Sequence record: MN850609.1
DNA: 64,000 bases
Direction: 5' to 3' (one strand)
From: Escherichia phage dhaeg
Shown: one piece after another, positions 7,447-42,992 of the stretch
How positions within the stretch are numbered: position 1 is the first letter of the stretch
Layout of the letters: every line of letters starts with the position of its first letter
Notes under the pieces: model-generated
Told to the model about the DNA's origin: nothing
Database searches by the model: none
Seen by the model: only the letters and a program-made list of their open reading frames with translations
Position numbers and translations under genes: made by a program

Positions 7447-7899
7447 ATGATTATCAATGAAAACTCTTGGCATGTTAAATTACATGACCGCTTTTATGCC
7501 AGTTATTCGCGTCCGCGATCATTATGCGCATACTTCTGGAAAATGGTTTGGGTGTGCTTTATGTGTTCTGTGCTTGCAGGTAGTACTATTTTCGGCTTAA
7601 CTGTTGCAGGTGCCGGTATATTGGAGCAGTTCTTTGTATTGAGTACTCCTGTTGGTTTAAGTTTAGGTTTTATTTTAGGACTGATTATAATAGCCCTTAT
7701 TCTAGCGGTAGCTTTTGGTTTGGTGTATGGTCTAATGAATTTATGGGCCCGGTACGATTTACGTAAAGAAGAAAAAGAATGGGAACGCATTAAAGCTAAA
7801 CGTGAAGGAAAGGAAATTAAAGAAAATGTTTTCATTCAATATATTAAAGCTCGTAAATCTAAGATGTGTCCGGTAATCCATTTTGAGGCTAAGAAATGA
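7447..7899 (+). CDS. integral membrane protein
   Basis: 150 aa, two or three hydrophobic helices, basic C-terminus. Confidence 0.5.
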   Translation: MIINENSWHVKLHDRFYASYSRPRSLCAYFWKMVWVCFMCSVLAGSTIFGLTVAGAGILEQFFVLSTPVGLSLGFILGLIIIALILAVAFGLVYGLMNLWARYDLRKEEKEWERIKAKREGKEIKENVFIQYIKARKSKMCPVIHFEAKK

Positions 7900-8906
7900 G
7901 AACAGTTATGAAAGGCTACTTCGGTAGCCACCTTTATGGAACAAGTACTCCGGAATCTGATGTCGATTTTAAAGAAATCTTTGTTCCACATCCGCGTGAT
8001 ATTCTGTTAGGTACGGCAATGAACCATACCAACCTGAACACGAATAACACTGCTTCCAAAAACACTAAAGATGATGTTGACCATGAGCTTTACAGTCTGA
8101 AATATTTCTTTAAACTAGCTGCTGAAGGCGAAACCGTTGCTCTGGATATGCTCCACACTCCGCCTGAAATGGTGGTTAAATCTGATTTACCTGATGTATG
8201 GAAATTTATCCAAGATAACCGTTCGCGTTTCTATACAACCAACATGAAAGCCTATTTAGGGTACGTCCGTAAGCAAGCTTCTAAATATGGTGTTAAGGGT
8301 TCTCGACTGGCTGCTTTACGTGGTGTACTGGCAATTGTTAACCAGATTCCTGAACAGTGGGTTGATTATCAAGAAGATGGTTCTACTAAGCAACGACGTA
8401 CTAAGGTAGAAGATATTAAGCACCGGCTCCCTGAAAATGAGTTCTGTGAATGGGTATTTCATAACCACGAGAAAACAGGTCCTCAAACGTTCTATACCGT
8501 CCTCGGTCGTAAATACCAAACTACTTTGTCATTAATCGAGCTCAAGCAATCTCTGAATAAACTTGATGCCGAATATGGTGAACGTGCTCGTAAGGCCGAA
8601 GCCAATGAAGGTATTGACTGGAAAGCTCTGAGCCACGCTTATCGTGCTGGATATCAGTTGAAGGAAATCTATCAAACAGGCGATTTGGTTTATCCACTTA
8701 AAAATGCTTCTATTATTAAAGCAATAAAAGCAGGTGATATGCCTTTTAAAGTGGTCCAAGGGCTGCTAGAAAACATTGTTGATGAAGTTGAAGTCCTGGC
8801 TGTACAAGCTCATAAGAACGGTATACCTGAGAAGGTGGACATGAAGTTCTGGGACAAGTTCGTCGAAGAGGTGTATCTTGACAACCACAACTCTTATTAC
8901 CGCTAA
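7896..8906 (+). CDS. nucleotidyltransferase-fold protein (Pol-beta superfamily motif GS...DVD)
   Basis: 336 aa; GSHLYGTSTPESDVDF motif; ATGA overlap upstream. Confidence 0.5.
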   Translation: MRTVMKGYFGSHLYGTSTPESDVDFKEIFVPHPRDILLGTAMNHTNLNTNNTASKNTKDDVDHELYSLKYFFKLAAEGETVALDMLHTPPEMVVKSDLPDVWKFIQDNRSRFYTTNMKAYLGYVRKQASKYGVKGSRLAALRGVLAIVNQIPEQWVDYQEDGSTKQRRTKVEDIKHRLPENEFCEWVFHNHEKTGPQTFYTVLGRKYQTTLSLIELKQSLNKLDAEYGERARKAEANEGIDWKALSHAYRAGYQLKEIYQTGDLVYPLKNASIIKAIKAGDMPFKVVQGLLENIVDEVEVLAVQAHKNGIPEKVDMKFWDKFVEEVYLDNHNSYYR

Positions 8907-9102
8907 AGAAGAAATCAAGGTTTTCCTGTCATATGGAAGACCTCATAAAACCTGTCGTTGGTATCTTGAAGTAGTTTGTAGAGAAACCGGTAGACGAATC
9001 AATTTCAAGTACGTATGCAAGCCTACGTCTAAGCAGATAAGACGGTGTATTAACTGGGCTATCAATAATATCCGCTTCCATAATTATTGGAGCGCAATTT
9101 AG
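8878..9102 (+). CDS. hypothetical basic Cys-containing protein
   Basis: 74-aa ORF overlapping end of upstream gene; stop abuts terminator. Confidence 0.3.
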   Translation: MTTTTLITAKEEIKVFLSYGRPHKTCRWYLEVVCRETGRRINFKYVCKPTSKQIRRCINWAINNIRFHNYWSAI

Positions 9103-9124
9103 GAACCTTCGGGTTCCTTTTTTT
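9102..9124 (+). terminator. rho-independent terminator (GGAACC-TTCG-GGTTCC + T7), copy 1 of repeated cassette
   Basis: perfect hairpin plus T-tract; identical hairpin at about 43401 and 63909. Confidence 0.8.
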
Positions 9125-9143
9125 GGGTTCAGCACAAAAAAGT

Positions 9144-9172
9144 GTTTACAACCTAGTAGAGCATGTTATTAT
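9144..9172 (+). promoter_or_regulatory. early promoter (GTTTAC / TATTAT)
   Basis: AAAAAAGTGTTTAC, 17-bp spacer, TATTAT. Confidence 0.6.
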
Positions 9173-9209
9173 GGACCTATCAAATCTACTGAGTGAAACG
9201 GAGAATATA

Positions 9210-10190
9210 ATGTTAACTATCAAAATCAACAAAGGTATCTATCGAGGTAATGAAATCTCTGGTACGTTCATGAGTTCAGGTAAAACCTGGTTCCCTAATA
9301 AAATTCATGAATCCGAAGCTCACCTCGGTGACGGCAAGGTATTTGTACAGATTGATGGTGTTGAACGTGGTGTGTGGGTGTTCAAATGTGACATCGAAAT
9401 GGAAGGTGCTGAAGCTCCTGCAATGGTCACCGAATCCGCTGAAGAAATGAAACACCGCATCAACAAACGTTTTAAAGTAATGAACATGATGACTAACGGA
9501 ATCATCGATGGTAAAATTCGTTCCCTTATCATCTCTGGTGCCGCAGGTATTGGTAAAACATACTCTTTGGATAAAGCATTACAAAATGCCCATGAAAATG
9601 AAACTATCGAATATAAATCAATCAACGGAAAGATTAGTGGAATCGGTCTTTACGAGCAGCTTTGGAATAACCGCGGCCCTAATAGTGTTCTTCTTATTGA
9701 TGATGTTGATGTATTCTCTGACATGGATATCCTGAACCTTCTGAAAGCCGCATTGGATACTGGTGAAAAACGTAAGGTGTGTTGGAGCACTTCAAGTTCT
9801 TACCTCGACGATAAAAATATCGATAAAGAATTCGAATACGAAGGCACCATCGTGTTCATCACCAACGTTGATATTGACCGTGAATTAGAGCGTGGAACTA
9901 AACTTGCTCCACACCTCCAGGCTTTAGTATCTCGTTCCGTTTATCTCGACTTGGGTGTTCACTCAAACGAAGAGATTATGGTTCGGGTTGAAGACGTTAT
10001 CCTGTCCACTGATATGATGCAAAACCGAGGTCTGACCGATGCCGAGACTTATCAAGCTTTAGCATGGATGAAGGCTAATGTATCTCGTCTTCGTAACGTA
10101 TCATTACGTACAGCTCTTTATCTGGCGGACTTCATTGCCACCGATAAAAATGACTGGAGCGAAATCGCTGAAGTTACACTTCTGAAATAA
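9210..10190 (+). CDS. AAA+/P-loop ATPase
   Basis: Walker A GAAGIGKT, Walker B LLIDDVD; start placed at ATG after promoter (listed ORF start 9087 spans terminator and promoter). Confidence 0.6.
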   Translation: MLTIKINKGIYRGNEISGTFMSSGKTWFPNKIHESEAHLGDGKVFVQIDGVERGVWVFKCDIEMEGAEAPAMVTESAEEMKHRINKRFKVMNMMTNGIIDGKIRSLIISGAAGIGKTYSLDKALQNAHENETIEYKSINGKISGIGLYEQLWNNRGPNSVLLIDDVDVFSDMDILNLLKAALDTGEKRKVCWSTSSSYLDDKNIDKEFEYEGTIVFITNVDIDRELERGTKLAPHLQALVSRSVYLDLGVHSNEEIMVRVEDVILSTDMMQNRGLTDAETYQALAWMKANVSRLRNVSLRTALYLADFIATDKNDWSEIAEVTLLK

Positions 10191-11187: not shown

Positions 11188-12033
11188 ATGTCACAAGCAA
11201 TTAATCAAATTCGTTCTGAAGTTAAAAAAGTTGTTAAATTTGGTCGTATTCCTAGTTCTAAAGAAGTGGTTGAAAAGGTCCTATATATGATGTGGGACAA
11301 GTTCAATGTTTGTACTGTTAAAGATGACTTTATTAAAATCTTTGACAAGACTAAAGGTTCGTTTACGTTAGAAGACCGGGTCATGAAAACTCTTCGTAAA
11401 ACAGGTATGTTGTCTCGTGCTAATGCCAAAATTATTCTTAAAAATTATAACAAAGGCTACGACCTTTATGGTCGTTTAATCCCGGCGATGTCATTTGGTG
11501 AAGTTGTTCAAGACCTTCATGCCAACCAACGACGTTTACTGGCTCTTGGCGCTCGACTTGCAAAAGGTCTTGATAAACAAATGACATTTAAGACTAACGG
11601 TTCAGGTGATTGGATTATCTTTAATATTGTTAACCACCCTGGAAATGAAAATGAGTATACCATTTCGACTTTTAGTGGTTGTCAATACGACAACTGGAAG
11701 TTCCATCTGCGCTTGGCCCTGTCTGAATTAGAACAACACGGTGTTCTTAGTTTTGGTGATGCTGAAACTGGAGTAGGTCAGCGTATTAAACTTTATAAAA
11801 TTAAAGACCTGGCTGAAGAGCATTCAGAACAAGCTCCTAAAATGGAACCTGTACCAGTGCGCAGCAATGAGAAACATCAGGCCCAGATTGAGTATTTTAG
11901 CAATTTGCTTACTTGCTTGAATGTTACAATCCAACAACAAGATGATGAGATTTTCCGACTCTCTGGTCTTAATGCCAAAGCTAAGGCTGAACGCCAGAAA
12001 TATATCGATATCCTAAATCTTCTTAAGGATTAA
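11188..12033 (+). CDS. hypothetical protein with C-terminal coiled-coil tail
   Basis: 281 aa; conserved TIR ACTGAGGAAATTATTATG. Confidence 0.5.
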   Translation: MSQAINQIRSEVKKVVKFGRIPSSKEVVEKVLYMMWDKFNVCTVKDDFIKIFDKTKGSFTLEDRVMKTLRKTGMLSRANAKIILKNYNKGYDLYGRLIPAMSFGEVVQDLHANQRRLLALGARLAKGLDKQMTFKTNGSGDWIIFNIVNHPGNENEYTISTFSGCQYDNWKFHLRLALSELEQHGVLSFGDAETGVGQRIKLYKIKDLAEEHSEQAPKMEPVPVRSNEKHQAQIEYFSNLLTCLNVTIQQQDDEIFRLSGLNAKAKAERQKYIDILNLLKD

Positions 12034-12117: not shown

Positions 12118-12333
12118 ATGGAAATCTTAGGTTTTATTCTCCTTTACTTTGTGCTAGGATTTATGACGACCTTTATCATTCATAAATCAGGTGATTGGAA
12201 TCCGATCGAAATTGAATCAAGCTATGATGCAGTATTCATTACACTAGTATGGCCCCTACTTTGGGTTGTTTTGGTCATTATGATGGTGTTTTGGCCTATC
12301 GCTAAATTCTATGAAAAATTATTTGGACTTTAA
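12118..12333 (+). CDS. small membrane protein
   Basis: 71 aa, two hydrophobic helices. Confidence 0.45.
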   Translation: MEILGFILLYFVLGFMTTFIIHKSGDWNPIEIESSYDAVFITLVWPLLWVVLVIMMVFWPIAKFYEKLFGL

Positions 12334-12334
12334 T

Positions 12335-13204
12335 ATGAACATTAAAACACGTAAAGAATACTCTATATACGACCATGACACAACTCGTCGTATCGCTATT
12401 GACAGGTTAGCCGACTTTGGTCATATTTGTAATGGTAATTATACTTATGGCGTAGGTCGTAAAGGAACTTATATTTCTTCTTTGAACGATTATTGCCGTC
12501 GCCCAGCCCACCTGTTTGGTGCAACATTACGAGCTAATATCAAAGACCTCTTGGCTACTGCAGGACGTATTTCTACGGTTCCTGTTAATATCAAGAATAT
12601 TAATTTTACGGCCCGTAACCTAGTCATTAATATTCTGTCTGACGGTATTCAAGTTCGTTTTCGCCCCACCTCAAAAGGTAATAAGGCCCTTCGTGAAGCA
12701 TTCGAAACCTTATTCAGAGAAGCAATGACTCGTATTAAGGCCGTAGAATCATATAAAGTTACAACCGATGAATATGCTGATTGTTCCGGGCAAGCCGATG
12801 CAGTGTATATCAGAGTTAAACTAACTAGCGAATATCTTTTATCTTATGCCCCTTATCAACCCCAACAAAAGGACCCACAAATGGAACGTCGTATCTCTGC
12901 AGTATCATGTGACAGCGTAGGCCAGTATGCAGCCTATGACAAATTCAAAACCACCGCTGTGCCTAGTCCATTCAATTCCGAACCGTATCATTGGAAAATT
13001 AAACCTGATAATTCTTTGGTTGTTACTAACCCTACGATGAAACCTATTGAGACCTATTATGCAGATAGCATTCAGGAATCAATCCATCGTTTAAATGGTC
13101 AGATTGAAGATGAGAAAAAGAGCATTCAAGACGTTCTTAATCGCATCAAGAATATGGAAAACCAGCGTGACAAGCTTCGCGCGGCACTATTAGCTCTAAA
13201 ATAA
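12335..13204 (+). CDS. hypothetical protein with C-terminal coiled-coil tail
   Basis: ATG immediately after upstream stop. Confidence 0.5.
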   Translation: MNIKTRKEYSIYDHDTTRRIAIDRLADFGHICNGNYTYGVGRKGTYISSLNDYCRRPAHLFGATLRANIKDLLATAGRISTVPVNIKNINFTARNLVINILSDGIQVRFRPTSKGNKALREAFETLFREAMTRIKAVESYKVTTDEYADCSGQADAVYIRVKLTSEYLLSYAPYQPQQKDPQMERRISAVSCDSVGQYAAYDKFKTTAVPSPFNSEPYHWKIKPDNSLVVTNPTMKPIETYYADSIQESIHRLNGQIEDEKKSIQDVLNRIKNMENQRDKLRAALLALK

Positions 13205-13205
13205 T

Positions 13206-13235
13206 GTTTACATCCAAGGACGGATGGAGTATAAT
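13206..13235 (+). promoter_or_regulatory. early promoter (GTTTAC / TATAAT)
   Basis: GTTTAC, 18-bp spacer, TATAAT. Confidence 0.55.
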
Positions 13236-13263
13236 CCTTTTATCAACTACTGAGGAGAATATC

Positions 13264-14274
13264 ATGACCCGTACTGAATACATCAATGCCTTTACTACGT
13301 ATATCACTGACAATACCCCTCCATTAACCCCATATGAGGTGATAGTTTCCAATATCAATAAATGGGTAGACCAAATTGATGAAGATTTGTCGCTGTATTT
13401 TAAATCTGAAATAGAAAAGATTGCAGGGCGTTTGTTTATCCCTGATATCATAGATACATTTAAAGGTTCTCGACTTCTTTCGCGGCTGGTTAATAAGGAT
13501 ATCCTTTCAGAGTTTGGCAAAGAGAAACACCCAGGTTCCAGCCACGTTGTTAGCTACCAATGGTTTGGTGATGTTTTAAAAAGCTATATCAAAATGAAAG
13601 GTATGGATCCTAGTGGTCTATTTCCACAGCGTTGGACTAGTGAATTTAAGGCTAACTCTGCATTAATTCTCAAAGCGGCCTCTAAAACCATAGTTTCTGG
13701 TGATTCCCGTACTATTCACCCTATGGCTAATTGCATGATTAAAACAAATAGTTATAAAGGAAAAGCAATTATTTCTGTTATTTGGTCACCTAATAGGAAA
13801 CCTAAAGATGACGCGGAAGTTGTAAAGTATCAAGATATTGCTTACGACACCTTGAATATTATCGAACAAGCCTTAGCTTTTATGGATACAGTAGAGAAAT
13901 ATGAGACTCAAGAAGTAAAACATTTCTATGGCTGGAAAGGATACGAGGTCTTAGTAAAAGTTCGCGAAATCAAATGCCATGTTCCAAAAACTGACGCTGA
14001 AATTTACCAAGAAAAATGTGAGGAAATTGTGAACACTGATAAAGAGCCTGCTACATTAGAAGACTTGATTAACGACTTGAATAGCCCTATCATGGCTCCT
14101 ACACCAATTACTAAATCCAAGTTACCGGAAATCGTTGCCTTAGAAAAAGCGTATAAAGATGCCCTTGCTATTAACAAAAAACTGACTGGCCAATATACCG
14201 CTGCCAAGAAACTTTGGGAAGAGTCTACCAATCGTTTAGACCGTCTTGAACAAGCTCTGGAGCTGTTGAAATGA
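13264..14274 (+). CDS. hypothetical protein with C-terminal coiled-coil tail
   Basis: start at ATG after promoter and GAGGAG RBS (listed ORF start spans promoter). Confidence 0.5.
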   Translation: MTRTEYINAFTTYITDNTPPLTPYEVIVSNINKWVDQIDEDLSLYFKSEIEKIAGRLFIPDIIDTFKGSRLLSRLVNKDILSEFGKEKHPGSSHVVSYQWFGDVLKSYIKMKGMDPSGLFPQRWTSEFKANSALILKAASKTIVSGDSRTIHPMANCMIKTNSYKGKAIISVIWSPNRKPKDDAEVVKYQDIAYDTLNIIEQALAFMDTVEKYETQEVKHFYGWKGYEVLVKVREIKCHVPKTDAEIYQEKCEEIVNTDKEPATLEDLINDLNSPIMAPTPITKSKLPEIVALEKAYKDALAINKKLTGQYTAAKKLWEESTNRLDRLEQALELLK

Positions 14275-31616: not shown

Positions 31617-31676
31617 GCAATAGAAATTTATTAAAAATAGTGTATAATGTATCTACATTCACTTGAGGAACAGATA

Positions 31677-33350
31677 ATGAAAAAGGTTGTTATTTTAGGC
31701 GCAGGTCTTGGCTCACGGTTGTATCCAATTACTAACGAAATCCCGAAGGTATTGGTTAACTACAAACAACATACTGTATTAAAACATTTGTATGATTTGT
31801 ATAGTAACCAATCAGATGAAATTATTCTGGTTATCCACAGCAAATTTAACGACCTCGTTAAAGGCTATATTAAATCCATTAACATGATTACTGGCGATAA
31901 GCCTAAATTCACTATTCGTAACGTTGATGTTGCTAATGGTTCGGCCCATGCTATCGATTGCATTGCCGAAGATATCATTGGCCATAATGTCTTGTTTAAC
32001 TGGTGTGACATCATTCCTATCGGTCATAAAGTTGAATGGGGTAACGACTACTGTTATACCTATGGAACCGACTGTCGTTTTACATTCGAAGAACCATATT
32101 TACGTGAAATTGGTACTGGTGGTGGCGTAGTTGGTTTGTATCAGGTGGCTAACTGGACAGGTTTCGACCGTTCTAATTATGGTGAAGACCTTGCTGATAA
32201 CCTGGATTCAATGGTCTATTTGACCGAACGTAAACTAGACTTTGTAGTTGATGTCGGTGACAAATTGAAACTGGCTAAGGCCCATGAAGAATCTGAAATC
32301 AATCGTGAATTTAATAAATTAGAATTCACTGAGAATCTGGCCATTAAAGTACCAACTAACGAATTAGGTAAAGAAATTCAATCTAAAGAAATCAATTGGT
32401 ATAATTCTATTGATTCTGAATTTGTTCCTAGTATTGTGGACTTTTCTCCAGGCGAATTCATTAAAATGGAACGTATCTTTGGTCGTACCATGGCAGATGC
32501 CTACCGCTTTATGTCCAAAGAAACTAAAGTCCTCATGGTTTATAAGGTCATTAGTGCATTACGTTCATTTGGTGGAACTATCGATAATCCGTCCGATGAA
32601 CAATGGTATTCTGATGTTAAGAAAGAAGTATTGGACAAGGTCCTTATTCGTAATGCTTCTATTGCTGGATTGATTGAAGGCTTTGCTCCACAAGGCATTA
32701 CCCACGTTAACGATTTCAAAGTAGGCGACCCTGAAAAACTTCTCCGCCATGCACTAGAAATTCTGTCTGAACATAAAGAACCATACCAACTTATTCATGG
32801 CGACCCGCACTACAGTAATATTATGCTGTCGGACGAAGGTGATATTAAAATCATCGACCCACGCGGTTATTTCGGTAATAGTTCTAAAGGCCCTGCGATT
32901 TATGATGAAGCTAAGGTGCTTTATTCTATCGATGGCTATGATAAATTTAACTCAGACCCTCTATGGGGTGGATTAACTCGTAACGGAACTCGTGTATTCG
33001 TTGATATCGAAAAGGTTATGCCTTTAGACGATATCCCTATGTGCACATTTAAGCACAAGCTCTGGATTGCCGTTATTTGGATGGCTCTGGCAGGTTACTT
33101 TAAGAATAACCCTCTGAAAGCTCTGGGTGCTTATTATAATGGTTTGTATCAACTGAGTGTGCTGCTGAAGCGGCATCCTCGTAAGCGTAAGCTTATTACG
33201 GGTGAATTTGTCGATGAAGTTCGTGACCCTATTACGGCTCAAATTATTACTCGTTGTCCTGATAAGTGGGTTTTGCTTGACCAGGAAACTGGTGTAAAAT
33301 ATAAACCTACAGGTTCTACTGAACTCCACAAACAATGGAAGAAAATTTAA
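31677..33350 (+). CDS. bifunctional LicC-like nucleotidyltransferase / APH(LicA)-like kinase fusion
   Basis: N-terminal ILGAGLGSRLYPITNEIPKVLV (sugar- or alcohol-phosphate NTP-transferase G-loop); C-terminal HGDPHYSNIML...IKIIDPRG (kinase catalytic loop); GAGGAA RBS; extended -10 TGTATAAT upstream. Confidence 0.65.
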   Translation: MKKVVILGAGLGSRLYPITNEIPKVLVNYKQHTVLKHLYDLYSNQSDEIILVIHSKFNDLVKGYIKSINMITGDKPKFTIRNVDVANGSAHAIDCIAEDIIGHNVLFNWCDIIPIGHKVEWGNDYCYTYGTDCRFTFEEPYLREIGTGGGVVGLYQVANWTGFDRSNYGEDLADNLDSMVYLTERKLDFVVDVGDKLKLAKAHEESEINREFNKLEFTENLAIKVPTNELGKEIQSKEINWYNSIDSEFVPSIVDFSPGEFIKMERIFGRTMADAYRFMSKETKVLMVYKVISALRSFGGTIDNPSDEQWYSDVKKEVLDKVLIRNASIAGLIEGFAPQGITHVNDFKVGDPEKLLRHALEILSEHKEPYQLIHGDPHYSNIMLSDEGDIKIIDPRGYFGNSSKGPAIYDEAKVLYSIDGYDKFNSDPLWGGLTRNGTRVFVDIEKVMPLDDIPMCTFKHKLWIAVIWMALAGYFKNNPLKALGAYYNGLYQLSVLLKRHPRKRKLITGEFVDEVRDPITAQIITRCPDKWVLLDQETGVKYKPTGSTELHKQWKKI

Positions 33351-33733
33351 TGTCGCATCGAGTAGAAAATAAGCCACATTTATGTTTTGATATCGATAAC
33401 ACAATCACGATTTGGAACCATGACCGTGATTATGAGAACTTTAAACCGGACACCGAAATGGTGTCCATGATTAATAAGCTTTATGATGAAGGGTACGAGA
33501 TTACATTGTTCACTGCCCGTGGCATGACTTCATGTGGCCCAGGTCGAATCTTGGTTGAAGTAGTTCCTGCATTGGTTAAGAATCTTGAAAAAATTGGATT
33601 GAAATATCACAATTTGCTTACACACAAGCCGAGTTATACTTTTATCATCGATGACCGAGCAATCCGTCCTGACCACTTTAAAGAATTGGTTCGTGAAGGA
33701 ACTCTTGATAGTTATAAGGCCTATCATCCATGA
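33335..33733 (+). CDS. small cap-less HAD-superfamily phosphatase
   Basis: motif I CFDIDNTIT, motif II ITLFTAR, motif III/IV K...IIDDR; start may be 33335 or 33350. Confidence 0.6.
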   Translation: MEENLMSHRVENKPHLCFDIDNTITIWNHDRDYENFKPDTEMVSMINKLYDEGYEITLFTARGMTSCGPGRILVEVVPALVKNLEKIGLKYHNLLTHKPSYTFIIDDRAIRPDHFKELVREGTLDSYKAYHP

Positions 33734-34266
33734 ATCCAAAAATCATTGTTATAGACGGCCCGGATAATTCCGGGAAGTCCACTTTAATTAAAAATCTGTT
33801 ATCCAATAAGAAATACCGCCTTATTGATTTTCCTAAAAAGATTAATGGCAAGTGTATTTCATTAGGAACTGATAACGATAAGGCTTTAGTTGAAACTCTG
33901 TATAAGTTTTTAGACCCTAATTTCGTTTATATCCTTGACCGTGGTTATCCAAGTAATATTGTTTACTCAGGATTCCTTCGTGGTGAAATGGACCCTTATG
34001 TAGAACTGGAAGATTGGAAAGGGTTTAAATCTGAATTTAACGTTATCGAGGTTATTTTAACTCGCAACCCATTAGACGAAGACTTCGAAGATGACCTTAT
34101 TAAATTAACCAAAGATGAGTTCAACCTAACTATCCAGCAATACGAAACATGTTTTGAAAACGTGTTTAAAATCTTAAATCATGACGGTCATAATAATTTG
34201 CTTAATGTTGATATGGTAGAATTAAAACGTCTGAACGAATATATTGAAAATAAGGTGAATAAATGA
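33730..34266 (+). CDS. thymidylate-kinase-like P-loop (d)NMP kinase
   Basis: IVIDGPDNSGKST P-loop and LDRGYPSNIVYSG (TMPK DRY-like motif); ATGA overlap. Confidence 0.55.
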   Translation: MNPKIIVIDGPDNSGKSTLIKNLLSNKKYRLIDFPKKINGKCISLGTDNDKALVETLYKFLDPNFVYILDRGYPSNIVYSGFLRGEMDPYVELEDWKGFKSEFNVIEVILTRNPLDEDFEDDLIKLTKDEFNLTIQQYETCFENVFKILNHDGHNNLLNVDMVELKRLNEYIENKVNK

Positions 34267-34961
34267 AACACATTACCGCTGTTAGTTTTGAAAACGCATT
34301 TAAACAAATGAACGAAGAAATCCTGGAAGCTCCACAGTTTGCAGTTGATTCTCGTATCGGACGCTGTTATGAAATTGGTTCTGCTTCAGTAGAAGTACTG
34401 GATGCCAGCACCTATAAATTCACCGACCCACGTATCAATCGTATCAGTTATGAATATGCCGAATCCTTTTGGAAATTTATGATTTCTGGTGGTACTGACG
34501 CTGCCGAAGCATTTAAGGAATACCCTAATGTTGCTAAGTTCATTGATAAGCCGAAAAGTGACGTATTGCCTGCAAACTTCAACACTTTCTATGGACCTCG
34601 AATTGTGGCCCAGCTCCCAGCCCTACTTAAAGAGCTTAAAGAAAAGGCTAACTCGCGAAGAGTTGTGTTCCAGATTCTCCAAGAACAAGACCAAGCCCTC
34701 CTTGATTCTGACGAATCCTTAGAATACCCGTGCACCGATTCAGTAACGTATTATATTCGTGATGGTCGTTTGTATGCACATACCCATATGCGTTCACAAA
34801 ACTGCGCTGTTGTTATGCAGCTGGATTTCTATCTGCAGGGTAAACTGATGGCATTTATTGCCGAACAGTGTGGTGTCGGTTTAGGTACGTATTCCCACAC
34901 CATGGTAAGTGCACACGTGTTTGAACGTGATTTTGACTACGTCCGAGGTTTCCTGAAATGA
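34263..34961 (+). CDS. 42: dCMP hydroxymethylase (thymidylate-synthase fold; gene 42 homolog)
   Basis: 232 aa; TS/dCMP-HMase family motifs (HMRSQN-like); synteny with imm and uvsX. Confidence 0.75.
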   Translation: MKHITAVSFENAFKQMNEEILEAPQFAVDSRIGRCYEIGSASVEVLDASTYKFTDPRINRISYEYAESFWKFMISGGTDAAEAFKEYPNVAKFIDKPKSDVLPANFNTFYGPRIVAQLPALLKELKEKANSRRVVFQILQEQDQALLDSDESLEYPCTDSVTYYIRDGRLYAHTHMRSQNCAVVMQLDFYLQGKLMAFIAEQCGVGLGTYSHTMVSAHVFERDFDYVRGFLK

Positions 34962-35851
34962 GTTTGTTTATCGTTCCTATTTTCAGTATGCGTAGTTACG
35001 AAACAGGTGAATATGCCGTCCTTAAGGACGGTAATTTTCAACTCCATTTAAATCGTGCTCGTCCAGGTGATTATCTGGCTTATCCTAGAAATTCGAGCGA
35101 TATCAAAGAATGCATTGAATTATTCCCAGAACTGAATTTCGTACCACTTTGGTATAAAGAAAATGCTTATGAAACCCGTAAACATTTCTGGTCCGAAAAT
35201 GAGTTTGTAGTCGATTCACTAATCGAATACTATGATTGCTCAGGACTGGTAACCGATATCACCGGTTATGATGGTGCTCATACTGTACAATTCAACTTTA
35301 ATATCACAATGGACCCTGAAGTTCCTCGTTATTATATCGACGAGTTCATTGATATTGATGTGGCTTCAGTTGAACGTTCACTTTATACTACAGTCCTGAA
35401 TCAATGCCAGAAAGACGTCCTGGTGTCACGAGGTGCATCCTCTGATAAGATTTTTGTAGACCAAAAGGTAATTAATCCTGCAGTAATTGAGCGTTACTCT
35501 GATGGTCTAGCGCCTATTAAAATTGATGGTATTTTCCATCCATTCCGTATTTCGGATAAGTGCTATCAATTCGAAAGAGTTGTAGACCAAGCTGCCGCTG
35601 AAGGTGCTCGTCTTTATATCACCGACCCGAATGATTCATTTAAGCGTGAAGACTATCGTCCTGATGTAGAGATTGTTAAATTCAAACCGAGTAAGGTTGA
35701 ATATTATCAGATTCTGAAATCAAGACCACATATCATTTATCATGAGAACCCAGGTTTAGTATTCCATCCTGGTCTGGCTGAATTCATTTATTTCGGTGCC
35801 CATATTCATTCTGAGTACGAAATGCCACGTTATGAGGACGTAGTATGCTAG
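34958..35851 (+). CDS. hypothetical protein at the beta-glucosyltransferase position; putative DNA base glycosyltransferase
   Basis: 297 aa; occupies beta-gt locus between 42 and uvsX; coupled to 42 by ATGA; no clear similarity to T4 beta-gt recalled. Confidence 0.35.
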   Translation: MSLFIVPIFSMRSYETGEYAVLKDGNFQLHLNRARPGDYLAYPRNSSDIKECIELFPELNFVPLWYKENAYETRKHFWSENEFVVDSLIEYYDCSGLVTDITGYDGAHTVQFNFNITMDPEVPRYYIDEFIDIDVASVERSLYTTVLNQCQKDVLVSRGASSDKIFVDQKVINPAVIERYSDGLAPIKIDGIFHPFRISDKCYQFERVVDQAAAEGARLYITDPNDSFKREDYRPDVEIVKFKPSKVEYYQILKSRPHIIYHENPGLVFHPGLAEFIYFGAHIHSEYEMPRYEDVVC

Positions 35852-35976
35852 GTCCTCTATTGCTTTTTATAGGTTTGTTATTATTCTCTTTCGGAGCCCT
35901 TCTAGTATTATGCTGGCTCGAGAAACGAGAAGTTCGGAAGATAGTCGATAAGGCTATCAACCGAGGAATTAAGTAA
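35845..35976 (+). CDS. small membrane peptide (unlisted ORF)
   Basis: 43 codons read by hand; hydrophobic N-terminus. Confidence 0.3.
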   Translation: MLGPLLLFIGLLLFSFGALLVLCWLEKREVRKIVDKAINRGIK

Positions 35977-36054: not shown

Positions 36055-37227
36055 ATGTCCGATTTAAAATCCCGTTTGATTAAAGCTTCTACTTCTAAAA
36101 TGACTGCCGATCTGACCAAATCTAAATTGTTTAATGGTCGTGACGAAGTTCCTACTCGTATTCCTATGCTTAATATTGCATTGGGTGGTGCGTTGAATGC
36201 AGGCTTACAATCAGGTTTGACAATCTTTGCTGCACCGTCTAAACACTTTAAAACGTTGTTTGGATTAACTATGGTTGCGGCATATATGAAGAAATATCCA
36301 GACGCAATTTGCTTGTTCTATGACTCTGAGTTCGGTGCTTCAGAATCTTATTTCCGTTCAATGGGTGTTGACCTGGAACGTGTGGTTCATACGCCAATCC
36401 AGTCAGTCGAACAACTGAAGGTTGACATGACCAACCAATTAGAAGAAATTACTCGTGGCGAAAAGGTTATTATCTTTATCGACTCCATCGGTAATACTGC
36501 TTCTAAGAAAGAAACCGAAGATGCTTTGAACGAGAAAGTTGTAGGTGATATGACTCGTGCTAAGTCTCTGAAATCTCTGTTCCGTATCGTAACACCTTAT
36601 TTGACTATCAAGGATATTCCTTGCGTAGCAATTAACCATACGGCTATGGAAATTGGTGGAATGTATCCTAAAGAGATTATGGGTGGTGGTACTGGTATTC
36701 TGTACTCTGCTTCTACCGTATTCTTTATCTCTAAACGTCAGGTTAAAGATGGTACCGAGCTCACTGGTTATGACTTCACCCTTAAGGCCGAAAAATCTCG
36801 TACTGTTAAAGAGAAATCAACGTTCCCAATTACTGTGAACTTTGAAGGTGGTATCGACCCGTTTAGTGGTCTGCTCGAAATGGCTACTGATATTGGCTTT
36901 GTCGTGAAACCTAAAGCTGGTTGGTATAATCGTGCATTCCTTGACGAAACTACAGGTGAAATGGTTCAAGAAGAAAAATCATGGCGTGCTAAAGCTACCG
37001 ATTGTGTCGAGTTCTGGGGACCGCTGTTTAAACATGCCCCGTTCCGTGAAGCAATCGAGAATAAGTATAAGCTTGGTGCAATTAATTCTATTAAAGAAGT
37101 CGATGATGCCGTGAACGACCTTATTAACTCTCGTGTCTCTAAGAACGTTGCAGTTAAATTGAGTGGTGACGCTCAAAGTGCTGCTGATATCGAAAACGAT
37201 TTAGAAGAGATGGATTTAGATGACTGA
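36055..37227 (+). CDS. uvsX: UvsX recombinase (RecA-like)
   Basis: 390 aa; N-terminus MSDLKSRLIKASTSK as recalled for T4 UvsX; RecA-fold motifs. Confidence 0.9.
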   Translation: MSDLKSRLIKASTSKMTADLTKSKLFNGRDEVPTRIPMLNIALGGALNAGLQSGLTIFAAPSKHFKTLFGLTMVAAYMKKYPDAICLFYDSEFGASESYFRSMGVDLERVVHTPIQSVEQLKVDMTNQLEEITRGEKVIIFIDSIGNTASKKETEDALNEKVVGDMTRAKSLKSLFRIVTPYLTIKDIPCVAINHTAMEIGGMYPKEIMGGGTGILYSASTVFFISKRQVKDGTELTGYDFTLKAEKSRTVKEKSTFPITVNFEGGIDPFSGLLEMATDIGFVVKPKAGWYNRAFLDETTGEMVQEEKSWRAKATDCVEFWGPLFKHAPFREAIENKYKLGAINSIKEVDDAVNDLINSRVSKNVAVKLSGDAQSAADIENDLEEMDLDD

Positions 37228-42470: not shown

Positions 42471-42992
42471 ATGGCTCATTTTAATGAATGTTCTCAACTT
42501 ATTGCTGGTGCTGATAAAGCTGAAGAAGCTTATTTTAATGCTCTGATTCACGAAGATAAAGACCCTCTGCAAGTTATGCTTGATATGCAGAAATCATTAC
42601 AGGTTCGTCTGGCCACTGAAAAATCGGAATTCAACACCAATCCTGATGAACTAGCTACAGCAGGTCAAGTTGTTGATTGGCTTCGCAACCAGAAAGATTA
42701 TATTGATGATGAATTCCGTGAACTGCTGACTTCTCTTGGCGGTATGAGTAATGGCGAAAAAGCTGCCTCTAGTGTGTGGAAGCCTTGGAAAGCCCAACAT
42801 GCTGAATTCCGTAATCGTCGTATTGACGAGTTGTCTCCTGAAGACCAGCTCGAAATCAAATTCGAGATGATTGATATTCTGCACTTTGTTCTTAATATGT
42901 TCCAGGGTCTTGGACTGACCGCTGAAGAAATCTTTAAACTGTATTATCTGAAAAATGCCGAGAACTTTGCTCGTCAAGACCGAGGTTATTAA
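42471..42992 (+). CDS. 56: dCTP pyrophosphatase (dCTPase/dUTPase, gp56, MazG-like)
   Basis: 173 aa; near-identity recalled to T4 gp56 at both termini. Confidence 0.85.
   Translation: MAHFNECSQLIAGADKAEEAYFNALIHEDKDPLQVMLDMQKSLQVRLATEKSEFNTNPDELATAGQVVDWLRNQKDYIDDEFRELLTSLGGMSNGEKAASSVWKPWKAQHAEFRNRRIDELSPEDQLEIKFEMIDILHFVLNMFQGLGLTAEEIFKLYYLKNAENFARQDRGY

Follow-up and report, generated by a model that had tools for sequence, protein, structure and literature searches.

A putative base-proximal 5-hydroxycytosine arabinosyltransferase at the beta-glucosyltransferase locus of Escherichia phage dhaeg

The open reading frame at the beta-gt locus and its family

We analyzed a 64,000-nucleotide (nt) stretch of Escherichia phage dhaeg (MN850609.1; referred to as the window) with a focus on one open reading frame (ORF) on the plus strand, at 34958–35851, which very probably encodes the enzyme that puts the first arabinose on 5-hydroxycytosine in this JS98-type T4-like phage. 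The transferase ORF, as we call it, starts with ATG and encodes 297 amino acids (aa); its start codon and the TGA stop of the 232-aa ORF before it (34263–34961, plus strand) overlap as ATGA (34958–34961), and a GAGG Shine-Dalgarno-like element is found 9 nt upstream of the ATG. The upstream ORF belongs to the thymidylate synthase (TS) family (Pfam PF00303, E 3.6e-13), and UvsX (PF21134, E 1.4e-36) is encoded by the large ORF that comes next on the downstream side (36055–37227). Since the gene order in T4 is 42/beta-gt/segA/uvsX, the transferase ORF occupies the locus of beta-gt (the beta-glucosyltransferase gene) by position. An earlier note on this DNA, made from the sequence alone, had placed a 297-aa product with an ATGA overlap between gene 42 and uvsX. 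Our reading of the ORF agrees with it on coordinates, length and overlap, and the position at the beta-gt locus stands as well, whereas the upstream gene is no gene 42 (see below).

The transferase region is 100% identical to that of Escherichia phage dhabil and 99% identical to that of JS98 (both of the genus Dhakavirus), and its dhabil counterpart is the coding sequence (CDS) dhabil_103, annotated as ‘hypothetical protein’. Homologs in several hundred phage genomes are annotated in the same way, or now and then as ‘RNA polymerase binding protein’. The sole library match of the ORF is PHROG 3891 (‘unknown function’; E 4.7e-159), which covers residues 1–296, and no Pfam family matches it. Full-length homologs are found in 352 phage records, including RB69-like coliphages (~68% identity) and phages of Klebsiella, Serratia, Yersinia, Proteus, Edwardsiella and Acinetobacter (~49%). 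Judging by the PHROG match, the 352 records and the dhabil CDS, the transferase ORF is a genuine gene and not a chance frame.

The protein aligns contiguously to RB69 gp47 (1–179, 70% identity) and gp46 (1–113, 65% identity), which are in fact a single ORF that a sequencing error had broken in two (PMC13326640). RB69 gp46:47 and gp79 of Acinetobacter phage DLP3 have been named as putative (alpha-)arabinosyltransferase 1, and the Dhakaviruses are listed among the syntenic groups in the same work (Lee et al., NAR 2026, PMC13326640). Shewanella phage Thanatos encodes another close relative, TH1_063 (52% identity over the full length, E 1e-99). By these alignments, the transferase ORF is an ortholog of RB69 gp47+gp46, DLP3 gp79 and Thanatos TH1_063, and it shows what marks the family: full-length homology, an N169-type synthase as neighbor, a GT-B fold, and genes for UDP-arabinofuranose alongside. 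PMC13216743 cites Mahler et al. 2025 for arabinosyltransferases named ‘Aat’, and RB69 gp46:47/DLP3 gp79 are probably equivalent to one of these enzymes. The ORF thus belongs to a gene family and a pathway described in 2025–2026, and its kind is not new, because the Dhakaviruses are already among the syntenic groups of PMC13326640; the suggestion in the earlier note of a novel DNA base glycosyltransferase had been overtaken by RB69 gp46:47 and DLP3 gp79 in that paper and by the ‘Aat’ enzymes.

A profile search against 1.84 billion representative proteins returned just 236 matches at E<=1e-3, so the family is small, and all genomic contexts that we examined for its members are viral. We note that Cronobacter phage vB_Cdu_VP8 and Serratia phage PS2 have at the same locus a protein of ~308 aa with 21–26% identity, and that a ~308-aa protein at this locus in Serratia phage Muldoon (BFVD A0A5P8PH66) is structurally similar (TM, the template modeling score, of 0.75). 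These ~308-aa proteins may form a sister transferase family with another sugar or acceptor.

Acceptor base, predicted fold and distant relatives

The upstream gene (34263–34961, plus strand) encodes a TS homolog that we assign as a 5-hydroxy-dCMP (5hodCMP) synthase, i.e., a flavin-dependent dCMP hydroxylase, predicted to make the acceptor base. The protein is 80% identical to RB69 gp48, as compared to 24.5% identity to T4 gp42 over 159 residues. Aligned with E. coli ThyA, T4 gp42 and RB69 gp48, it has Cys146, Glu143, Asp177 and Asn169 in ThyA numbering, where T4 gp42 has Asp169 (the ThyA numbering used agrees with the residues given in PMC13326640). The D169N change is diagnostic of 5-hydroxy-dCMP synthases and was validated on nine diverse enzymes; RB69 gp48 itself was shown to make the 5-hydroxyl at the mononucleotide level with flavin and O2 (PMC13326640). 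Of the cassette proteins searched against the PDB, it is also the only one with close solved relatives, 9iqc/9iqu (E 2e-125), deposited as ‘Thymidylate synthase’ in an accession series shared with 9iqz, ‘phage HY126 glycosyltransferase’. Because the upstream enzyme is RB69 gp48-like and has Asn169, the base that serves as acceptor in this phage is, by residue typing, 5-hydroxycytosine (5hoC) and not hydroxymethylcytosine (hmC). In RB69 and DLP3, cytosine is replaced by mono-, di- or tri-arabinosylated 5-hydroxycytosine with the sugar ether-linked straight to C5 (PMC13326640).

The earlier note had taken the upstream gene for the dCMP hydroxymethylase, gene 42, and the ORF for a divergent transferase acting on hmC DNA made with this gp42-type hydroxymethylase. 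The position at the beta-gt locus and the GT-B fold are what such an enzyme would have. We nevertheless give this version next to no credence, as the neighbor has Asn at ThyA position 169, the 80% identity is to an enzyme shown to make 5hodCMP (PMC13326640), its PDB matches are 9iqc/9iqu, and neither the window nor the whole dhabil genome has a gp42 ortholog, the only other TS-family gene being the ordinary td. The assignment of ‘arabinosyl-hmC’ to RB69 has itself since been corrected to arabinosyl-5-hydroxycytosine. The assay on hmC-containing DNA proposed in the earlier note would probably come out negative for the wrong reason.

In public records, homologs of the synthase appear as ‘thymidylate synthase’ or ‘dCMP hydroxymethylase’. 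In two jumbo-phage contigs (L011, 5426–5932; L008, 1–523) a Flavodoxin_2 (FMN-reductase-like) gene is found just 5' of the synthase homolog, and could plausibly supply the flavin-dependent hydroxylase with reduced flavin; the window has no equivalent of this gene.

The predicted fold of the transferase ORF is GT-B, with confidence, and its best structural matches are glycosyltransferases that use UDP-sugars, so the fold prediction that the earlier note had proposed as a check came out as it expected. The closest solved folds are GT4-type retaining GT-B enzymes (sucrose-phosphate synthase 6kih, BshA, PimA, WaaG and MshA), with 8–15% identity. As compared to these, the transferase ORF is ~60–100 residues shorter, and no family member gives a signal for Pfam Glycos_transf_1 (PF00534). 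Invariant residues in the family include M11-R12-S13, D24-G25-N26, Y66 and R74 in the N-terminal domain, and F193-x-P195-F196-R197, D200, Y203, T222-D223-P224-N225, K246 and H270-P-G in the C-terminal domain; positions 263 and 275 are acidic in every member. R197 and K246, together with the acidic residue carried by the helix that follows strand four of the C-terminal domain, would form the nucleoside diphosphate (NDP)-sugar site as in GT4, with residue roles assigned from secondary-structure position and not from 3D coordinates.

The resemblance to T4 beta-gt (family GT63) that the earlier note found missing is indeed absent: tblastn with T4 beta-gt, run on the window and on the whole dhabil genome, returned nothing at E<1, BLASTP of the two proteins gave E 0.65, and profile-profile comparison by hhalign gave a probability of 0.2%. 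The family profile scored a probability of <1% in hhalign against each of RB69 gp3, T4 beta-gt and T4 alpha-gt, and kinship to these three is therefore at the level of the fold only. We propose a way of working similar to that of the T4 glucosyltransferases (beta, GT63; alpha, GT72), although the ORF is in neither family. Two other identities were considered and rejected: an RB69 gp3-type arabinosyltransferase 2 (the HY126 glycosyltransferase, PDB 9iqz), which shows no sequence homology to it, and a sugar-1-phosphate nucleotidyltransferase, given that the confident folds are all GT-B and that Pfam NTP_transferase does not match. Searched by sequence, the PDB held no structure related to the transferase ORF, to the kinase/nucleotidyltransferase or to the Tmk-like kinase (the latter two are described in the next section).

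Distant relatives keep the same company. On contigs 356 kb and 383 kb long, a gene with 37–40% identity still has a TS homolog and a Tmk-like kinase for neighbors, with SIS-isomerase, APH-kinase and Flavodoxin_2 genes close by. A remote family member (hhalign 99.2%, E 6e-20, 25% identity) is gp115 of Rhizobium phage P9VFCI (Pootjesviridae; contig L014, 4597–5628), which overlaps the end of a TS homolog and is the counterpart of RL38J1_215, ‘galactosyltransferase 1’. It shares the motifs SMRSYETG-Y...DGN, YG-NA-E-R, PFR-SD-Y-F, TDPN-S and H-G with the transferase ORF, and it sits in the same trio of TS homolog, transferase and P-loop kinase (gp114–gp116), so that the trio is kept across two phage families. 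P9VFCI gp115 differs in being ~45 residues longer, in belonging to another phage family and host, and in its base-proximal sugar, which is galactose and not arabinose: RL38J1, a relative of P9VFCI, carries galactose on 5-hydroxycytosine (PMC13326640). Since homologs attach arabinose or galactose, the transferase family appears to follow the acceptor (5-hydroxycytosine) and not the sugar, as expected of an enzyme that recognizes 5-hydroxycytosine.

The sugar-nucleotide cassette and the rest of the pathway

The transferase ORF is the last of five genes in a translationally coupled cassette on the plus strand, with overlaps at 33335–33350, 33730–33733, 34263–34266 and 34958–34961. The first gene (31647–33350) encodes a sugar-1-phosphate nucleotidyltransferase (N-terminal) joined to an APH-type kinase (C-terminal), a homolog of RB69 gp53:52 and of AfhE of phage HY126. 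It matches Pfam NTP_transferase (E 3.4e-8) and APH (E 9.5e-6), contains the motif GAGLGSRL...PK (GxGxR...PK), and shares 44% identity with RB69 gp53 and 41% with gp52. Its actual start is probably 31677 (MKKVVILGAG...) and not 31647, because the dhabil annotation, the alignment to RB69 gp53 (which starts at 31677) and a promoter-like -10 element at 31643–31648 agree on this. The -10 element is part of a sigma-70-like promoter match directly 5' of the cassette (TAGAAA-16-TATAAT, 10/12 consensus positions; 31621–31648, plus strand); in our promoter/terminator scan, the number of matches in the region was not above the shuffled expectation.

The second gene (33335–33733, plus strand; start at 33350 in the dhabil annotation) encodes a HAD-type phosphatase, homologous to RB69 gp51 (62% identity) and HY126 AfhF (PHROG 1238, E 7.6e-42), which is proposed to convert arabinofuranose-1,5-bisphosphate to arabinofuranose-1-phosphate. 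PMC13326640, drawing on the study of phage HY126 by He et al. 2026, describes AfhE as phosphorylating arabinose-5-phosphate at C1 and later uridylylating arabinofuranose-1-phosphate, with AfhF stripping the 5-phosphate, to give UDP-arabinofuranose (UDP-Araf); it also reports UDP-arabinose pyrophosphorylase activity for AfhE. By analogy, the product of the first gene would make UDP-arabinofuranose. The third gene (33730–34266, plus strand) encodes a Tmk-like P-loop kinase, presumably a kinase of the modified nucleotide (38% identity to RB69 gp45; PHROG 761, E 6.8e-40), and is followed by the synthase and the transferase ORF. A dCTPase of the same pathway is encoded outside the cassette (42471–42992, plus strand; gp56 homolog with 94% identity to RB69 gp56), and dhabil also carries a gp1-type dNMP kinase (dhabil_206).

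A 43-aa ORF, MLGPLLLFIGLLLFSFGALLVLCWLEKREVRKIVDKAINRGIK, is found at 35845–35976 on the plus strand, with its ATG overlapping the stop codon of the transferase ORF (ATGCTAG). Its product has a single hydrophobic helix plus a basic tail. The dhabil record does not annotate this ORF, and no PHROG matches it; it may be a translationally coupled sixth gene of the cassette.

As compared to RB69, the system is rearranged and simpler. The Tmk-like kinase gene lies 5' of the synthase in dhabil and 3' of the transferase in RB69, and dhabil is without RB69 gp55, gp50, gp49 and gp3. Searching the whole dhabil genome by tblastn, we found no homolog of RB69 gp55 (arabinose-5-phosphate isomerase), gp50 (U32-peptidase-like) or gp3. 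With the isomerase absent, dhabil would depend on host KdsD/GutQ for arabinose-5-phosphate, and with the gp3-type second transferase absent, mono-arabinosylated DNA is predicted. The gp3-type enzyme is found in 212 records, nearly all of them Mosigvirus-type coliphages and Acinetobacter phages, versus 352 for the transferase family, which is the pattern expected if the transferase family adds the base-proximal sugar everywhere and the gp3-type enzyme extends it in some lineages. Double arabinosylation has been reported for Bas46 and Bas47.

A partial Pfam/PHROG scan of the other mid-sized unassigned ORFs found nothing transferase-like. By the sequence searches and this partial scan, in which the ORFs at 11188–12033 and 12311–13204 are without assigned function, the transferase ORF is the sole recognizable transferase of the pathway in the dhabil genome. 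The view of the earlier note that it is the best candidate for using the donor made by the cassette is thus upheld by the GT-B fold, the coupling to the sugar-nucleotide cassette and the lack of another recognizable candidate. A GT-B protein need not be a transferase: it could be, for example, an NDP-sugar 2-epimerase or a hydrolase acting on the sugar nucleotide, with the true DNA transferase an unrecognized protein encoded elsewhere. We consider this very unlikely.

Several other ORFs of the window, all on the plus strand, were looked at. Three consecutive ORFs of 281–356 aa without function (11188–12033, 12311–13204 and 13204–14274) fall in PHROGs 2257, 2351 and 1435 (DUF7235); the last of them (356 aa) was rejected as an arabinosylation-specific gene, having 44%-identical homologs in T4 itself. 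Two further ORFs are located 5' of genes 47/46 and are unrelated to the transferase: 9087–10190 (367 aa) has weak matches to STAND/AAA NTPase and HTH_37, and 7896–8906 (336 aa) encodes an RlaP-type nucleotidyltransferase (pol-beta family, RNA-repair pathway).

The cassette also bears on whether the transferase ORF makes the sugar donor instead of using it, i.e., acts as a pyrophosphorylase that converts UTP and a pentose-1-phosphate to UDP-pentose, with no transfer. Purified Thanatos TH1_063 gave UDP-xylose from UTP and xylose-1-phosphate by liquid chromatography–tandem mass spectrometry (LC-MS/MS; Brandt et al., AEM 2025, PMC12838424), and, as noted above, it is 52% identical to the transferase ORF over the full length. 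TH1_063 has the same place 3' of a TS homolog, and Thanatos is reported to be mono-pentosylated with a single such gene. The formation of UDP-xylose is hard to square with the GT-B fold, which is not that of a nucleotidyltransferase. The cassette moreover already has a canonical nucleotidyltransferase domain with the GxGxR...PK motif, whose HY126 homolog AfhE is the reported pyrophosphorylase, and dhabil would be left without any transferase. The assay of Brandt et al. had a no-enzyme control only (PMC12838424), and a co-purified E. coli activity of the GalU type could therefore have produced the UDP-xylose. For these reasons we hold it very improbable that the transferase ORF is a pyrophosphorylase.

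Proposed mechanism and its implications

We consider it likely that the transferase ORF encodes a compact GT-B glycosyltransferase that takes arabinofuranose from UDP-Araf and attaches it to 5-hydroxycytosine at the 5-OH, giving mono-arabinosylated DNA. The proposal is based on orthology, the predicted fold, the linkage of the genes, the signature of a hydroxylase in the neighbor and the absence of other transferases of the pathway; from these we infer the identity of the donor, DNA and not the nucleotide as acceptor, a retaining (alpha) stereochemistry and a product with one arabinosyl group. In the proposed sequence of events, the phage dCTPase would convert dCTP to dCMP and so keep dCTP out, the adjacent TS homolog would hydroxylate dCMP to 5-hydroxy-dCMP, and kinases and the phage polymerase would place 5-hydroxycytosine in DNA instead of cytosine. 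In parallel, the kinase/nucleotidyltransferase and the HAD phosphatase of the cassette would turn host-made arabinose-5-phosphate into UDP-arabinofuranose. In the last step, the transferase would move the sugar off UDP and onto the 5-OH; it most likely acts on DNA after replication, with the base flipped out in the manner of the T4 glucosyltransferases. The product would be an ether-linked arabinosyl-5-hydroxycytosine carrying the first (base-proximal) sugar, by which the genome would be shielded from nucleases.

The step at which the sugar is added allows for a second order of events. With the same enzyme and donor, the acceptor could be free 5-hydroxy-dCMP, or its di- or triphosphate, in which case arabinose would be added before replication, the Tmk-like kinase would phosphorylate the product, and the polymerase would incorporate it. 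Lee et al. cannot tell mononucleotide from DNA for the first sugar, and saw no activity on 5hoC-DNA (PMC13326640). The Tmk-like kinase is always found beside the transferase in spite of the gp1-type dNMP kinase (dhabil_206), whose RB69 ortholog already phosphorylates 5hodCMP (PMC13326640), and the acidic character of the family (isoelectric point, pI, 4.9 for the transferase ORF) would also suit a nucleotide acceptor.

Natural fusions point the same way, at least in part. The transferase is fused to a C-terminal Tmk-like kinase (PHROG 761, as in the window) in four representatives (P0205, P0221, P0227 and P0244), and the reverse order, kinase then transferase, is found in P0217 (hhalign 91.7%, E 8e-7). 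In six others (P0131, P0142, P0151, P0156, P0166 and P0171), the transferase domain follows an N-terminal sugar-phosphate phosphatase of the KdsC/YrbI type, assigned by profile search against the PDB (E 1e-13 to 2e-10). One of these (L013, 7001–8650) is found in the context TS homolog, fusion, SIS isomerase and a 523-aa protein. The fused HAD domain was rejected as a homolog of the HAD phosphatase of the window (hhalign probability <1%), and is analogous (KdsC/YrbI-type) and not orthologous. As the transferase domain is fused to a sugar phosphatase as well as to a kinase, fusion reflects a shared pathway and not a shared substrate.

Several other points speak for DNA as the acceptor. To our knowledge, characterized phage DNA glycosylations are post-replicative throughout. 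T4 gene 42 likewise adjoins beta-gt, with no glycosylation at the nucleotide level, and the Tmk-like kinase may be a plain 5hodCMP kinase, given its general co-occurrence with the hydroxylase. DLP3 gp76+gp77 act on DNA, and co-expression of the RB69 hydroxylase and the gp1-type dNMP kinase suffices for 5hoC in plasmid DNA (PMC13326640), which means that unglycosylated 5hodCTP is a substrate of the polymerase. Overall, addition at the nucleotide level seems to us unlikely, though clearly the most serious alternative. Should it hold, no earlier case of a sugar put on a DNA precursor before replication would be known; the phage polymerase would build a glycosylated dNTP into DNA, and the co-evolving Tmk-like kinase, which is fused in some members, would be a dedicated arabinosyl-5-hydroxy-dCMP kinase.

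A number of observations weigh against an arabinosyltransferase of either kind, or against its action on DNA. None of the 53 family members that we scanned matches a glycosyltransferase Pfam model at E<=1. The canonical E-x7-E spacing of GT4 is absent, and the transferase ORF has E263...H270-P-G-x-x-E275 instead (E-x11-E, with invariant H270). The protein is acidic (the pI of 4.9 comes with a net charge of -17, and the family median pI is 5.2), which is odd for an enzyme that binds DNA; charge and pI are not discriminating as a proxy for DNA binding, since pI values under 6.5 are shared by RB69 gp3 and T4 alpha-GT (6.1). TH1_063 showed no transfer, on substrates that comprised unmodified C only and not 5hoC (PMC12838424), and individual DLP3 transferases did not arabinosylate 5hoC-DNA with UDP-Araf or UDP-arabinopyranose (UDP-Arap) (PMC13326640). 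In the literature, here and below taken without two papers that may decide the question of activity (He et al. 2026; Mahler et al. 2025), we found no family member with demonstrated glycosyltransferase activity, and no chemical analysis of Dhakavirus DNA.

With the arabinosyltransferase as the preferred assignment, the following go beyond this literature: the Dhakavirus system as a predicted minimal one (mono-arabinosyl and host-isomerase-dependent), the homology between the arabinose and galactose enzymes, the fusions to kinase and phosphatase, and the conflict between the fold and the reported pyrophosphorylase activity.

Arabinosyl-5-hydroxycytosine is a recently recognized hypermodification of phage DNA; restriction enzymes, Brig1-type glycosylases and some CRISPR systems are blocked by it. 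The commitment of DNA to this chemistry falls to the base-proximal transferase, which is the least characterized enzyme of the pathway in the literature. The minimal system of dhabil and JS98, with one transferase and neither isomerase nor extender, could be a clean model for the first-sugar step, and the transferase could serve as a tool for making mono-arabinosylated DNA. The GenBank labels of the transferase and the synthase are wrong or uninformative in several hundred phage genomes, therapeutic candidates included, and are misleading as to the chemistry of their DNA. A family defined by its acceptor, across arabinose and galactose, offers a handle on new glycosyl-5-hydroxycytosine variants in metagenomes.

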